Virus record (IMG/VR): IMGVR_UViG_3300008807_000159
Location: 1 to 49,654 of that record
Reading direction: 5' to 3' (one strand)
Length of the DNA stretch: 49,654 nucleotides
DNA from: a virus
Position numbers and translations under genes: made by a program. Below are positions 27,182 through 31,521 of this stretch, piece after piece. How positions within the stretch are numbered: position 1 is the stretch's first letter; every line of letters starts with the position of its first letter. Under the pieces are notes generated by a model that saw only the letters and a program-made list of their open reading frames with translations, searched no databases and was not told the DNA's origin.

Positions 27182-27369
27182 CGGCACCCGCGCGCATCAC
27201 CCAGGCCGACATCGATCGCGCCATGAAGAGCTGCAAGAATGCAGGCTATCTCGGTGCGCGCATTTCACTCGATCTCGCCAAGCAGCGCATTGACATATAT
27301 GTCGGTGAAGCCGTTGAATCTCCGCCCCCGGTGAAGGAAGATGACGGCGGAGGCGACGACTATGGATAG
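27178..27369 (+). CDS. Small protein immediately upstream of the integrase (excisionase candidate by position only)
   Basis: 63 aa, overlaps the int start. No recognisable Xis/AlpA HTH. Confidence 0.4.
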   Translation: MTAPARITQADIDRAMKSCKNAGYLGARISLDLAKQRIDIYVGEAVESPPPVKEDDGGGDDYG

Positions 27370-28432
27370 AGACTGGCCACCCAAGCACGTAACGCCGGTC
27401 AAGGATCGGCATGGCAAAAAGCGCTATCGGTATCGCCGAACCGGCGTGAAGAGCTGCTACATCAACCACGCGCCGCAATCGCCCGAGTTTTGGTCAGAAT
27501 ATGACCATCTCGAACAGCTCGGCGCGTTGCCGGATGCTGAAGGTGTGGTTCGCGCCTTCATCCCCCGCAGCATGGATGATCTCGCCTCCAAGGTGAAGCG
27601 CACGACGTCGTGGAAGCGCATGAAGCCGCAGGGCCAGCGCACCAAGGCCAGCATCATCGAACGACTGCTCGACAAGAAGAATAAAGGCGGCCGCCGCCTC
27701 GGGGAGCGTCCCGTAACCGCTGTCACCGTCGCCATGCTCGACGGGATCCTCGGCAAGATGATGGACACCCCCGGTGCGGCCGACAACTTCCGCAAGGAGA
27801 TGAAGCGGCTGTTCGGCTACGCGGTGAAGCTCGGATGGCGCTCAGACAATCCGGCGTCGATGACCGATCCCATTCCCTCGGGCGCGGGCTGGCATACTTG
27901 GACCGATGACGAAATCCAGAAATATCGCGACCATCACGCGCTTGGGACGATGGCGCGCATGACGTTGGAACTGGCCCTCAATACGGCGGCGCGGGCGTGC
28001 AACCTCAACGACATCGAGCGGACACACATTATCCGCGGCAAACTTCACGTCGCCCATGCAAAGGAGAACGACACGACGATCGTTGCCCTACTCCCAGAGA
28101 CAAAGGCTGCCATCGAAGCATTGCCTGTCGCACCGATACGCTTCCTGATTACCACGGCATTCGGCAAGCCGTTCTCGGACAAGGGCATCAGCAACAAGAT
28201 GCGGCAGTGGTGCGATGAGGCTGGGCTACCGCAGTGCTCGCTTCATGGACTTCGCAAGGCGACCAGCCGGCAGCTAGCCGAGAGCGGCGCGACCGATGCG
28301 CAGGGCCGGGCAGTCACTGGGCACAAGAAAGATGCGACCTTCGCCTACTATGCGAAGATGGCGGATCGCGAGAAGCTGGCCGATCAGGCGCTCACCAATT
28401 TGACCCGAGAAAGGGACACAGATGCAGGTTGA
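27362..28432 (+). CDS. int: Tyrosine integrase
   Basis: Start at ATG 27362. Catalytic pattern R (LNTAARACN), HGLRK, TGHK and FAYYAK (Tyr). Confidence 0.9.
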   Translation: MDRDWPPKHVTPVKDRHGKKRYRYRRTGVKSCYINHAPQSPEFWSEYDHLEQLGALPDAEGVVRAFIPRSMDDLASKVKRTTSWKRMKPQGQRTKASIIERLLDKKNKGGRRLGERPVTAVTVAMLDGILGKMMDTPGAADNFRKEMKRLFGYAVKLGWRSDNPASMTDPIPSGAGWHTWTDDEIQKYRDHHALGTMARMTLELALNTAARACNLNDIERTHIIRGKLHVAHAKENDTTIVALLPETKAAIEALPVAPIRFLITTAFGKPFSDKGISNKMRQWCDEAGLPQCSLHGLRKATSRQLAESGATDAQGRAVTGHKKDATFAYYAKMADREKLADQALTNLTRERDTDAG

Positions 28433-28768: not shown

Positions 28769-30005
28769 ATGCGGCATGACCTGGCTCTATCTGCCGCCGG
28801 AAGCTACACCGTCAACGCCCTCGCCATCTGCGCTGGCGTCGGAGGCCTCGAACTCGGATTGCAGCTTGCCCACCATCATCGGGGACAGGCTGTGCGCGGC
28901 GTCTGCTACGTGGAGAGGGAAGTCGGAGCAGCCGCAAGCCTGGTCGCGTCGATGGAAGCGGGGTGGTTTCATCCGGCGCCTGTCTGGTCTGACGCTCGAA
29001 CCTTCGACGGCCGACCGTTTCGCGGATGCGTGGATATCGTCACTTCGGGCGACCCGTGCCAAGGCAATTCCGTGGCCGGAAAGCGGCGCGGCGAACTCGA
29101 CGACCGCTGGCTGCTCGATCGCGCCATCGACATCTTCGATCAAAGCGGGGCTCCAACCTTCTTCCGCGAGAACGTGCCGGGGAACGCCGAGGGACAACTC
29201 GCCGTTGCCATCCCGGCATTGGAGCGACTGGGCTGCCGCATTGCGGTCGGAATATTCAGCTCGGCCGAAACCGGAAATACGATGCGGCGGGAGCGACTCT
29301 TCATACTCGCCCGACGGATGGGCAGCGCCGCAAGCACGGGATCACTTCCCGGCGCACACGGAAGAATATATCGCGGCGAAGAAGGCTCAGGGTCACGGAA
29401 TGCGGAATCTCAACGACGAGGCCGCACAGTGGATGGCCCCGAACGTGCCGAACGGTGGTCGATCGACAGCCCATGCGGAGCAACTCGGCAATACGCTTTA
29501 TCACAACGGGAAGAAGGTCCAGATGATGCTGGAAAGCCAAGCGTCGAACTGGTCCAGTCCGAAAGCATCAGACCCGGAGAAAGCGGGACCGAACATGCGG
29601 GGCAGCAAGGGCGACGTCCCGCTGCCGGCGCAGGCGATGCAGTGGCTGGCGCCCTTGGTGGCCGACGCGGGCGAGAAGATCACGCTGGCCAGCCATCAGG
29701 GATCGCTACTGAAGCAGGCCAACGACTTCCTCCCGCCGTCATCCCCGGACCATCCGATAATCGCGGCTGGATCGACGTCCTCGACCGATTCCCCGAATAC
29801 CAACCAGCCCTCAGTGAAGAGGAAGCTCAATCCCATCTTCGTCGAGGCATTGATGCGATGGCCAACCGGATTGAGCGGCTTCGAGCGACTGGAAATGGCG
29901 TCGATCCTGTGGCTGCGGCTTATGCCTTCCTACGTCTCGATGCTCTTCTCGGCGCTGCCGCATGACACTCAAATGGAAATGTTTGCAGAAAGGCTATCAG
30001 CATGA
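28769..30005 (+). pseudogene. C5-cytosine DNA methyltransferase interrupted by a +1 frame change
   Basis: The frame of 28769 carries motifs I (AICAGVGGLELG), IV (GDPCQGNS), VI (FFRENV) and VIII (RRERLFILA). The continuation (WAAPQARD, WMAPNVPNGG, WSSPKASD, WLAPLVAD, RKLNPIFVEALMRWPTG) is in the frame of 28740. The junction is at 29309-29320. Confidence 0.7.
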
Positions 30006-30869
30006 CCACCAATGACCGCACGGGGGTGACGCCCAAGCCACCGGAGGCCACCATGAGCGGTGAGCGGGAGGGGCTGGTCTATCATGGCACGCCGTTAACA
30101 CCACGCGCCGCGCTCAATGCCATCATGCCGGGTCGCGCGGCGTGCGTTTCATTCTTCCGACCTGACGACTTGGAGGCTCTGCTGGCTATCTGCCCGCAGG
30201 TGATGTTTCGACCATGGAGCGTTCAGCTTCTGGATGCAGGCGATGCGCGCCGGTCGGGAATGGGACGAATCCGACCGGCATCTATGGTGGCGAGCTTATT
30301 ACGACTGGCTGGAGCCGATGCTGTTTCAGCCGGGGCGGTGGGCCATCATGCCGGACAGTCCCGCTGCCCCTTCCCAGCTCAACGATGGCCTTCTCAACGA
30401 CTGGCCGTTTGGACATCTGGGCGCGCCTGTTTGGCACATGGATGGGCCGATAGAGAGGCTGGCGAGGCTGTGCGACCGCTTTCCGCGCGTCTGCCTCGGA
30501 TGGATCGGCGATCCGAAGAAAGAGCCCGTCGGCTGCGAGGCATACTTTCGCAAGATGGACGAGGTTTCCCGGCTGATGGGAAACACTTGGCATCCCCTGC
30601 ATATGCTGCGCGGCACTCTCGTTGCGCGAGAATATCCGTTTCTCAGCGTGGACAGCACCAGCCTAGCGCAGAACGGACACCGCTATGACGACGAGGGACC
30701 GGATTGGATCGGGCGCCAGCGGTACGCCTGTAGACTTGAGCAAGGCTATTTCACCGGGAGAGTTCGCAAGCGAGTGCGCCTCAATCGTCTCGCGGCACAG
30801 AGGGCACCGCGCGCACCGGTTGCTCGACCGACTGGTTACAGAGACCCTGTCCAGCTTGGGCTACTCTGA
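30002..30869 (+). pseudogene. TIM-barrel-like protein (possible DpdA/TGT-like DNA transglycosylase) interrupted by a +1 frame change
   Basis: ...ICPQVMF (frame of 30002) continues as DHGAFSFWMQAMRAG... (frame of 30234) if one T of TTT 30206-30208 is removed. The 3-prime end is uncertain. Confidence 0.5.
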
Positions 30870-31020
30870 GGGCATGGCGATCTTCCTGTCCCATGTCAGC
30901 CCGTTTCATGACGAAAGGCCCAACCATGACCGACCTTAAAGCACTGGTAGAGAGAATAGAGGGGGCGCTCGCTCTCTGCGCAGCAAGTCTCCGTGCCCGT
31001 ATCTCGAAAGGAACCCGCCC

Positions 31021-31521
31021 ATGACCACTGAACCAACCAAGGACAACAAGATGAGCGGAACCTATTGTGCGTCGCTGGAAGATATGCAGGCATGGGCGCG
31101 AGGAGTAATCCAGAATCGTGTTCCTGACTTTGTTATCGGGGACAATTATCTTCGTCGCTGGTGGGTCGTCCCGCGCAACGATGGCTGCAACGTCTATCTG
31201 CATGAGATCAACCGGAGCGACGATGACCGGGCGCTACACGATCATCCGTGGGATAATACCAGTCAGCTCCTTCTCGGAGCTTATATCGAGCACACACCTG
31301 AAGGGTCATTTCGTCGCGAAGCTGGGGAGATCGTCAACCGGAAAGCGACCGATGCACACCGGCTTGAGGTAATCCCCGGAGAGGGGGCGGTATCTCTGTT
31401 CATGACCGGCCCGAAGTTGCGGGAATGGGGCTTCCACTGTCCACAGGGATGGCGTCATTGGCGCGATTTTGTCGATTCTCGCGATGCCGGACAGATTGGC
31501 AAGGGCTGCGCCGATGACTGA
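31021..31521 (+). CDS. Hypothetical protein (HDHPW motif, cupin-like)
   Basis: 166-aa ORF. Confidence 0.6.
   Translation: MTTEPTKDNKMSGTYCASLEDMQAWARGVIQNRVPDFVIGDNYLRRWWVVPRNDGCNVYLHEINRSDDDRALHDHPWDNTSQLLLGAYIEHTPEGSFRREAGEIVNRKATDAHRLEVIPGEGAVSLFMTGPKLREWGFHCPQGWRHWRDFVDSRDAGQIGKGCADD

Follow-up and report, generated by a model that had tools for sequence, protein, structure and literature searches.

A DpdA-like phage gene with a conserved +1 frame break: a probable programmed frameshift

The DNA analysed here, a window of 49,654 bp, is a complete phage genome with direct terminal repeats, and the phage is a temperate sphingomonad phage. Next to a methyltransferase gene that is itself out of frame, it carries a DpdA-like gene whose conserved sequence passes from one reading frame into another. 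An earlier note on this DNA had raised a sequencing error, or decay of the DNA-modification arm of the phage, as possible grounds for the break. Is the DpdA-like frame interrupted by error, by damage or by design? From the comparison of the locus with its relatives, the best reading is that the interruption would be by design and not damage, and that it would represent a rare natural bacterial programmed +1 frameshift.

Reading frames and the encoded enzyme

The features of the locus are collected in Table 1. Frame A reads to ..QVMF, where it reaches the slip codon. One option for its start is ATG 30002, which overlaps the stop of the upstream methyltransferase frame as ATGA; the start is more likely ATG 30053, which lies 5 nt after a GGAGG at 30043-30047. 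Frame B has a TGA at 30202-30204 and then reads C F D H G A F and onward to its own stop. Because this TGA is two codons upstream of the site, the shift is confined to the slip-site codons. Dropping one base at TTT-C gives a single protein, ..VMF-DHGAF.., just as the earlier note had written it. The conserved fold ends near 30740 in frame B, and the basic tail beyond that point is poorly conserved and overlaps ORF C. The 3-prime end had been called ambiguous and placed at 30939. The third-frame ORF behind that ambiguity is real and conserved, but it belongs to a separate overlapping gene, so that 30939 is the end of that gene and not of the +1 frame.

Table 1. Features of the DpdA-like locus, with positions in the window
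Feature	Positions	Strand	Description
Frame A	30002..30208	+	N-terminal part of the DpdA-like protein (beta1-beta3); open from ATG 30002
GGAGG	30172..30176	+	candidate element conserved at the nucleotide level, exactly 34 nt upstream of slip codon TTT
Slip site ATG TTT CGA C	30203..30212	+	invariant in 54 distinct class I loci, neighbouring codons variable; UUU 30206-30208, UUC 30207-30209, 0-frame CGA 30209-30211, +1 GAC 30210-30212 (predicted catalytic Asp)
0-frame read-on	30209..30688	+	159 sense codons, non-conserved sequence; stop TGA 30686-30688
Frame B (+1)	30210..30869	+	remaining DpdA-like enzyme (219 codons, ending at TGA 30867-30869); residues of the predicted active site encoded at 30210-12 (Asp), 30354-56 (Asp), 30435-37 (His), 30600-02 (His) and 30651-53 (nucleophile Asp)
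ORF C	30685..30939	+	84 aa, third frame; ATG overlaps the 0-frame stop as ATGA (30685-30688)

Profile and structure searches bear out the TGT/DpdA-like fold that had been suspected. PHROG 887 ('queuine tRNA-ribosyltransferase') matches the DpdA-like protein with an E value of 1.2e-20, and hhalign aligned the family profile with the DpdA of phage 9g at 97.8% probability (E 9e-13). In this alignment D48, D95, H123, G144, H178 and D195 fall on active-site motifs of 9g DpdA, and D48, D95, D195 and H123 are invariant or nearly so in 59 diverse members; the roles of the active-site residues were taken from DpdA (PMC10164549). The likeness to DpdA-type motifs that had been noticed from the letters is found again, with LDSGGF-like, HGFG-like and S-x-DS-like motifs present. 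The structure of P0077, an intact homologue that shares 65% identity with the protein of the window, was modelled with AF2; the model has a pLDDT of 95.9 and eight strands alternating with helices (E4-8, 24-28, 44-48, 89-92, 121-123, 141-144, 177-179 and 193-196). These strands coincide with eight hydrophobic blocks previously picked out in the translation. The best three matches of the model among 48,161 PDB representatives were Cap10 (9ntn, Z 13.8), ArcTGT (1iq8, 13.6) and DpdA (7ui4, 13.4), TGT-family Z-scores that lie within 1 unit of the roughly 13 scored by generic TIM barrels. Foldseek against the PDB returned weak generic TIM-barrel matches (E > 1e-3), among which Cap10 alone stood out (TM-score 0.57). 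Two family profiles, used as HMMs to search the PDB sequences, produced noise only. There was no match to Pfam, including PF01702 (TGT), or NCBIfam at E up to 1 for both halves, the 0-frame ORF and intact homologues.

Compared with the known enzymes, the family is a minimal form. Intact members are about 230 aa long and end about 35 residues past the nucleophile Asp, and therefore lack the zinc-binding C-terminal subdomain. The hhalign match to 9g DpdA ends at residue 238 of 317, and the cysteine cluster of the zinc site is absent from the family alignment. Sequence comparison and modelling thus support a minimal, zinc-domain-less TIM-barrel enzyme of the TGT/DpdA superfamily. Its most likely activity is that of a DNA guanine transglycosylase that would insert a host-made 7-deazaguanine (preQ0 or a relative) into phage DNA. 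The absence of preQ0 synthesis genes and a dependence on host precursors had both been proposed earlier, and both hold up: no match to QueC or QueD/PTPS was found in the whole phage genome, and four genomes that carry class I copies (defined below) each encode QueC.

DpdA1 of Enterobacteria phage 9g and the bacterial DpdA (PDB 7UI4, PMC10164549) share with this family the TIM barrel and the order of residues: an acid/base Asp in D-x-G-x-F after beta3, a base-binding Asp, His, a Gly-rich loop and a nucleophile Asp in S-x-DS. The singleton DpdA groups (Hutinet et al. 2019, PMC6884629) are likewise without preQ0 synthesis genes. The family described here differs in its small size, in the missing zinc subdomain and Pfam TGT match, and in that about half of its sampled members need a +1 frameshift.

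Conservation of the frame break among relatives

The identical ATG TTT CGA C junction, which we call class I, was found in 69 of 153 related loci, with flanking codons that vary synonymously; a single-protein search of genome contigs yielded only 4 loci. The N-part and C-part motifs were both found in 133 loci; joining them requires a +1 shift at the N junction in 67, of which 65 have ATG TTT CGA C/T. The ATG, TTT and CGA codons are 100% conserved in the 54 distinct class I loci. Two further classes break elsewhere in the gene. Class II comprises 15 loci (11 distinct) with a +1 shift at CCN TTT C.. directly before the nucleophile motif, and class III comprises 4 loci with a +1 shift at CCC TTT CTA T. 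All frame changes in the family, as seen by tblastn, go from f to f+1, and TTT followed by C is common to every junction of the three classes. Altogether, about half of the sampled DpdA-like family requires a +1 frameshift. Among cultured phages, the closest relatives by protein sequence reach no more than 43% identity and have no shift, and a search for a close DNA-level relative there found none. The family tree, built by a quick method only, is weakly resolved regarding the number of class I origins. Proteins starting with M-L-D-N-G were considered as extra frameshift cases and dropped; the one locus checked, L156 (P0177), has a miscalled start, and its N part is in frame.

Homopolymer errors do occur, and an error in a short T run, with the true gene in one frame, was among the earlier proposals. 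Isolate genomes (Sphingobium arseniciresistens, and Sphingopyxis fribergensis and others in which the gene was called from an internal Met) have the extra base as well, as do MAGs, IMG/VR records and metagenome contigs of many projects, and the T run is only three long. With the same codon broken in 69 loci, the probability of a sequencing or assembly error is negligible.

Both halves of the gene are under selection. With the exception of one copy, frame A has no stop between its start codon and the site, and frame B has none from there to the end of the fold. All class I loci keep YHGTP..VMF in frame A, and dN/dS in the N part is 0.17. Downstream of GAC, variation among the 54 distinct class I loci sits on frame-B third positions. 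Purifying selection thus acts on both reading frames, up to and from the junction, across diverged homologues. If a single ancestral 1-nt insertion had inactivated the gene and the copies were decaying prophage remnants, the interrupted frame would be accounted for, as would the out-of-frame methyltransferase beside it; in one relative, L051 (= L102), a 350-bp insertion has genuinely broken the gene. However, at least 54 distinct class I copies, which are 52-81% identical as proteins, are free of any second disruption, the slip codons do not vary although synonymous sites are saturated, the 0 frame is kept open non-randomly, and the window itself is a complete phage genome with terminal repeats. 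Together with the low dN/dS, these observations make a pseudogene, and with it the decaying modification arm suggested before, highly improbable.

Entry to frame B also appears to depend on frame A. At least 20 loci carry a frame-B stop two codons ahead of the Asp codon, with no frame-B start between the two, which leaves frame A as the only way into frame B. Split C5 methyltransferases exist, M.AquI for example, and by the same principle the frame A fragment could assemble with a C-terminal part started at the internal Met 30234, where gene callers do start the +1 ORF. The eight codons between the slip site and Met 30234 encode the predicted catalytic Asp motif, are conserved in frame B with third-position variation and have no frame-B start before them. 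The shift sites of classes II and III fall in other parts of the barrel, and there are no starts near them. A split enzyme of two subunits is therefore quite unlikely, and a shift from frame A into frame B accounts better for the junction.

The slip site, the unshifted frame and ORF C

The codons at the slip site would fit slow decoding in two of the three classes. In this phage Phe is encoded by TTT in 17% of cases, Arg by CGA in 10% and Leu by CTA in 3.8%, and there is no other in-frame TTT-CGA among 5,899 sampled codons. The class I CGA and the class III CTA are thus low-usage 0-frame codons, in line with a possibly slow A site. The 0-frame codon of class II is CGC, CGT, CAC, CCG, CAA or CAT; because CGC, CGU, CAC and CCG are common codons, the 'hungry codon' part of the model leaves class II uncovered.

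Upstream of the site, every one of the 54 distinct class I loci has GGAGG at -34, retained across V, L, M, K, T and A codons that share a final G. Among 39 intact homologues, no more than 9 have GGAGG anywhere within 60 nt. Another candidate, an SD-like stretch immediately ahead of the slip codon (in the window, AGGTGATG), is not conserved across loci. RNAalifold, applied to the 54 class I sites, gave no credible conserved RNA structure; its prediction was a GGAGG:UUUC helix with three G-U pairs at -1.8 kcal/mol.

Since TTT C is common to all shift sites, the frame could in principle be changed by transcriptional slippage on TTT or by a special tRNA that decodes UUUC as a quadruplet. Polymerase slippage is known from runs much longer than three T (PMC5009743), and the phage genome has no tRNA gene. 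Moreover, TTT C occurs in frame elsewhere in frame B, for example at 30321-30324 and 30546-30549, and frame conservation is kept there. Such non-ribosomal or unconventional recoding is very unlikely, and we favor slippage of the ribosome at the conserved codons.

Ribosomes that do not shift would continue in the 0 frame, and this frame is unusually open. Its median open length is 155 codons in class I, compared to 30 in intact homologues (shuffle P about 0.005). In the window it is stop-free where 4.4 stops were expected (synonymous-shuffle P = 0.003). No extra synonymous constraint was found over the 0-frame read-on. As it has no family match either, the 0-frame extension probably does not encode a functional protein.

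The end of the 0 frame is tied to ORF C. Where the ORF C start is displaced, the 0-frame stop is displaced with it: this stop lies at 154 codons in most loci and at 176-208 codons in L003, L006, L008, L009, L010, L014 and L083. The start/stop overlap opens an ORF of at least 40 aa in 45 of 55 distinct class I loci (a further 5 are cut by contig ends), compared to 14 of 40 controls. For the Tyr codon that gives rise to the ATGA, 50 of 61 shifted loci use TAT, compared to 14 of 48 others. ORF C has a conserved domain of about 50 aa containing His, Asp and Cys, with no match in Pfam, PHROG or NCBIfam. Enzyme frame B reads past the ORF C start and overlaps ORF C by about 180 nt.

A proposed programmed frameshift and its relation to known systems

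We think it likely that the minimal DpdA-like enzyme is made by a programmed +1 shift at a UUU_CGN-type site, and that this shift apportions ribosomes to either the enzyme or the coupled ORF C. The full enzyme would be made only when ribosomes shift at AUG_UUU_CGA_C. With tRNA-Phe on UUU in the P site and a presumably poorly decoded CGA in the A site, tRNA-Phe would re-pair with UUC, and GAC, the codon of the predicted catalytic Asp, would become the next codon. Ribosomes that fail to shift would read about 159 codons more, in a frame that selection keeps free of stops, and would end at ATGA, where they could restart on the third-frame ORF C. The slip site would thereby divide the ribosome flow between the enzyme and ORF C, in proportions set by the efficiency of the shift.

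One bacterial case is the programmed +1 frameshift of prfB (RF2), at CUU_UGA_C with an upstream Shine-Dalgarno sequence 3 nt away. The mechanism that we propose here would resemble it in combining a bacterial +1 P-site slip to better or equal pairing, a presumably slow A site and an SD-like element upstream. The A-site codon is a stop in prfB and a sense codon here, and no autoregulatory logic is evident here. The distance between the SD-like element and the slip codon is 29 nt here, against 3 nt in prfB, and GGAGG at -34 is too distant for the known Shine-Dalgarno effect of prfB. To our knowledge, few natural programmed +1 frameshifts exist in bacteria and phages: prfB and a handful of others.

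The link to ORF C likewise has a familiar form. In many phage operons, as here, the stop of the upstream reading frame overlaps the ATG of the next gene as ATGA, and intact homologues of the DpdA-like gene overlap the next ATG with their own stop. The class I arrangement departs from this usual coupling in that ribosomes would be delivered by the unshifted, apparently meaningless frame, whereas the enzyme frame overlaps ORF C.

The closest parallels to the slip itself are the UUU_CGN and UUU_Y systems. UUU_Ynn is +1-prone in bacteria, the influenza A PA-X cassette is UCC_UUU_CGU (PMC5009743) and the plant amalgavirus +1 motif is UUU_CGN (PMC5052127). Together with YopN-TyeA of Yersinia (PMC5009743, PMC5052127), these systems would share with the present site the movement of P-site tRNA-Phe from UUU to UUC before CGN, and in them the functional protein is the trans-frame product, as we propose here. 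The present case differs in its setting, a DNA phage of alphaproteobacteria, and in its position in a catalytic core, one codon before the catalytic Asp. It also differs in having GGAGG 34 nt upstream, a long selected 0-frame read-on and at least three separate sites in one family.

A more elaborate possibility is that the slip site is a sensor as well as a divider of fixed ratio, with the shift efficiency, and hence the amount of enzyme, answering to the Q/preQ0 status of the host and the distal GGAGG acting as a new long-range stimulator. The +1 codon, Asp GAC in class I or Tyr UAU in class III, would in both cases be read by a queuosine-modified tRNA in competition with the poorly read 0-frame codon (CGA or CUA). 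We regard this extension as unlikely. If true, it would establish feedback between precursor supply and DNA modification.

With or without such feedback, the same UUU_CGA site in at least 69 loci, and two further UUU_C sites within the same gene family, would provide a compact system for studying how UUU_C sites become efficient in bacteria and how one slip site sets the ratio of two products. GGAGG is strictly conserved at an unprecedented distance from the slip site. There are also consequences for annotation, as hundreds of database entries of the family are truncated at an internal Met or missing. Finally, this minimal DpdA-like family without the zinc domain is widespread in temperate alphaproteobacterial phages, and its enzymes would rely on the host for their precursors.

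Frame break in the DpdA-like gene and its relatives

We confirmed the observation, made in an earlier note, of a frame-broken gene beside the methyltransferase. Its 0 frame (frame A) has two possible starts, ATG 30002 and the more plausible ATG 30053, 5 nt behind GGAGG 30043-30047, and encodes a sensible protein as far as ..QVMF, with the TTT at 30206-30208. The +1 frame (frame B) continues as C F D H G A F after a TGA at 30202-30204; the two halves fuse by a one-base skip at TTT-C, exactly as that note had joined them. The conserved fold of frame B stops near 30740 (..A-C-R-L-E, the final helix of the model). A weakly conserved, basic tail of 42 codons follows, to 30866, and its last residues are fixed only because they overlap a conserved motif of ORF C, the third-frame gene. 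Frame B also contains an in-frame TTT CGC (A-Y-F-R-K) at 30546-30551, a dicodon like those of class II (see table), where a +1 slip would terminate after approximately 9 codons.

Using the +1-frame part as query, we found 327 homologues. Annotation of many of the closest (Sphingopyxis, Sphingobium) begins only at an internal Met, and more distant homologues (about 232 aa) have the N-terminal part in frame. Genomes, IMG/VR and metagenomes supplied 153 related loci, and we located both the N-part and C-part motifs in 133. A +1 shift at the N junction was needed in 67 of the 133, and 65 of these 67 have the invariant junction ATG TTT CGA C/T; loci with the slip site ATG TTT CGA C are called class I. 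Among 54 distinct class I sequences, ATG, TTT and CGA were each 100% conserved. The codon preceding ATG varies (GTG, GTC, ATC, ATT, ATA, CTC), as do the codons past GAC, and unshifted homologues have ATG TAC/TAT/TTC/CTC GAC at the equivalent position. With intact proteins as tblastn queries, all frame changes in the family were from f to f+1. Sequencing error is excluded because the same break occurs in isolate assemblies, MAGs and viromes, and we reject the suggestion of a broken or mis-sequenced gene in favour of a conserved, predicted programmed +1 frameshift. A decaying prophage remnant is likewise ruled out: the window is a complete phage genome of 49,654 bp with direct terminal repeats (CheckV 100% complete).

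Features of the window and shift sites in related loci
Feature	Position in window	Loci	Description
Phage integrase	27341-28432		neighbour of DpdA-like region
C5 methyltransferase	28769-30005		neighbour of DpdA-like region
GGAGG	30172-30176	54/54 distinct class I loci	exactly 34 nt upstream of TTT
Frame B coding	GAC 30210 to TGA 30867-30869		219 codons
0-frame stop	TGA 30686-30688		within T-ATGA-C; its ATG opens ORF C
ORF C	30685-30939		third-frame gene
Small ORF	30893-31024		directly precedes cupin-like gene
Cupin-like gene	31021-31521		neighbour, early-gene block; PHROG 4786 'cysteine dioxygenase', E 1e-54
Class II shift		15 loci, 11 distinct	+1 at CCN TTT C.., just before S-x-DS nucleophile motif
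Class III shift		4 loci	+1 at CCC TTT CTA T, between helix 3 and strand 4
L031 = L105 shift		one contig in two collections	CCC TTT T GTC

Common to all shift sites is TTT followed by a pyrimidine; in class II the 0-frame codon is CGT, CGC, CAC, CAT, CAA or CCG. A quick tree of weak resolution placed class III as a single group to one side of a branch; class II fell among unresolved basal lineages and could be a single group too, and class I was scattered over several clades with intact genes interleaved, so this state was either repeatedly gained or long held with occasional reversion. A distant homologue, P0151 (L155:1900-1990), has a frame change of -1 (or +2) near TCG GAG GCT GGG. The change falls after the G-S-T strand and before the W-x-R-M-D-E helix, about where the homologues P0147 and P0162 terminate; it is found on a single contig and may be either an error or recoding.

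Selection at the slip site and the nature of the shift

Frame A was open from start codon to slip site in all class I loci, and the N part had a median dN/dS of 0.17 (dS about 1.3). Frame B was open from the slip site across the entire fold, with the sole exception of L051/L102, which carry a 350-bp insertion. Just past the site, over the D-x-G-A-F-S-x-W codons, the variable positions are frame-B third positions. At least 20 loci, including the window, have a frame-B stop 2 codons ahead of the Asp codon and no start between, and therefore independent initiation cannot reach the catalytic Asp motif. Judged from this arrangement, frame B is enterable only from frame A, which pins the shift to the AUG/UUU codons. 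A two-piece enzyme with a start at ATG 30234 is excluded, since it would miss the same motif.

The DpdA-like copy in L051/L102 is truly disrupted. The insertion (L051:395-760, L102:3425-3790) has an 8-bp direct repeat (ATATCCAT) on either side and resembles a small mobile element. It lies at Y-P-F / S-x-DS, exactly the class II slip position.

Phenylalanine tRNA pairs with UUU by G-U wobble and with UUC by G-C. In the window phage, TTT accounts for 17% of Phe codons, CGA for 10% of Arg and CTA for 3.8% of Leu, and CGA follows none of 33 in-frame TTT codons (5,899 codons sampled). No tRNA genes were found in this phage. For transcriptional slippage, the run of three T is too short. UUU_Ynn is unusually prone to +1 shifting in bacteria, and the influenza A PA-X cassette is UCC_UUU_CGU (PMC5009743); for plant amalgaviruses, the +1 motif proposed is UUU_CGN (PMC5052127). 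Based on the short run, the lack of phage tRNA genes, the known shiftiness of such sequences and the rarity of the codons, we read the slip site as a putative programmed +1 ribosomal frameshift of the UUU_CGN type. A slow codon as part of the mechanism would suit classes I and III but does not account for class II. No publication connecting DpdA-like genes with programmed frameshifting was found.

The upstream GGAGG is under nucleotide-level selection. The codon ahead of GAG specifies V, L, M, K, T or A and always ends in G, with Val encoded by GTG in 37/37 class I cases; among 39 intact homologues, a GGAGG within 60 nt is present in just 9. In prfB the spacing is 3 nt, far shorter than here. 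At most sites of classes II and III there are candidate G-rich, SD-like runs 18-31 nt upstream. No convincing conserved RNA structure was found at class I sites.

Predicted enzyme and its gene neighbourhood

The DpdA-like protein matched no Pfam or NCBIfam model. It matched PHROG 887 'queuine tRNA-ribosyltransferase' (E 1.2e-20), and an exhaustive profile search recovered 452 representative clusters (E ≤1e-3). In an alignment of 59 diverse full-length members, D95, H123, H178 and D195 were invariant and D48 nearly so. The AF2 model of an intact homologue, P0077, is an eight-stranded TIM barrel (pLDDT 95.9), the strands of which are the eight hydrophobic blocks listed in the earlier note. Compared with all representatives, the top structural matches were Cap10 (Z 13.8), which is a TGT-like enzyme from a CBASS system, archaeosine TGT (13.6) and DpdA, which inserts preQ0 into DNA (13.4); bacterial TGT scored 12.8 and ordinary TIM barrels also reached approximately 13. 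By hhalign, the family matched phage 9g DpdA with 97.8% probability (E 9e-13), aligning column by column over D-x-G-A-F, the base-binding Asp, His, the Gly-rich loop, H-G-F-G and S-x-DS. This profile-to-sequence match is the decisive link for the predicted homology. In bacterial DpdA, the corresponding residues are Asp95 (the general acid/base), Asp130, His181 and Asp256 (the nucleophile) (PMC10164549). The family C-terminus extends only ~35 residues past the nucleophile with no Cys cluster, and thus the zinc subdomain is absent. The proposed DpdA/TGT identity stands as to superfamily membership, on PHROG 887, hhalign and fold, but one defining feature, the zinc site, is missing. The protein is a supported, predicted member of the DpdA/TGT superfamily.

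The family resembles the 'singleton' phage DpdAs, whose precursors come from the host (PMC6884629). As the earlier note had stated of preQ0 synthesis genes, neither QueC nor QueD was found in the window phage genome; QueC is encoded in 4/4 genomes carrying class I copies. The cupin-like neighbour matched no Pfam or NCBIfam model.

The upstream methyltransferase also has a +1 frame change, located after motif VIII and ahead of the W-x-x-P repeats. Two other diverged loci of 55-65% identity share this layout (N-frame f, C-frame f+1), L044:2929-3940 (contig = L119) and L050:3290-4382 (contig = L135). There is no TTT C at the junction, where the window reads GCC CGA C GGA. Instead of decay, the change may reflect another recoding event or an enzyme of two subunits. 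The stop of its C-terminal frame overlaps ATG 30002 as ATGA (30002-30005), and ATGA overlaps chain three consecutive reading frames: methyltransferase, DpdA-like 0 frame and ORF C.

The open 0 frame and ORF C

Past the slip site, the median open length of the class I 0 frame is 155 codons, compared with 30 (range 1-116) for the equivalent frame of intact homologues. When frame B was shuffled among synonymous codons, the probability of matching the observed open length had a median of 0.0045 (52 distinct loci) and was 0.003 for the window, where 4.4 stops were expected. Synonymous divergence in class I was not below that of intact homologues, which indicates that openness of the 0 frame is selected, and not its peptide.

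The third frame previously noted as protein-like is ORF C, and its ATG overlaps the 0-frame stop. In 45 of 55 distinct class I loci (5 more are cut by contig ends), this stop overlaps a start codon opening an ORF of at least 40 aa, compared with 14 of 40 control frames of intact homologues. Overlap types were ATGA (39), GTGA (3), TTGA (3) and ATGnTGA (2), not all opening an ORF of that length. Where the downstream gene starts elsewhere (L003, L006, L008, L009, L010, L014, L083), the 0-frame stop shifts along with it, to 176-208 codons. The Tyr codon that creates ATGA is TAT in 50/61 shifted loci versus 14/48 others. In intact homologues, the gene's own stop overlaps the next ATG.

ORF C is of two main kinds. 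That of the window is a domain of ~50 aa in which His, Asp and Cys residues are invariant. The other, in about half of class I loci (L040:5470-5817, L014:5593-5895, L024:3976-4365 and 24 others), is a QueD/PTPS-like T-fold just under the Pfam PTPS threshold (E 3e-4 to 1e-3). It recalls DpdL, a QueD-like proposed CDG decarboxylase in phages with DpdA3 (PMC10516641). At L042:5467-6078 (contig = L120), the ORF C domain forms a fusion with a domain like nucleoside 2-deoxyribosyltransferase (PF05014, E 2e-9); an identical gene is on a separate short contig, L121, and similar sequences follow the DpdA-like gene in L070 and L071.

In the simplest reading, unshifted ribosomes would run to the ATGA and restart on ORF C, and shifted ribosomes would make the enzyme, reading past the ORF C start.
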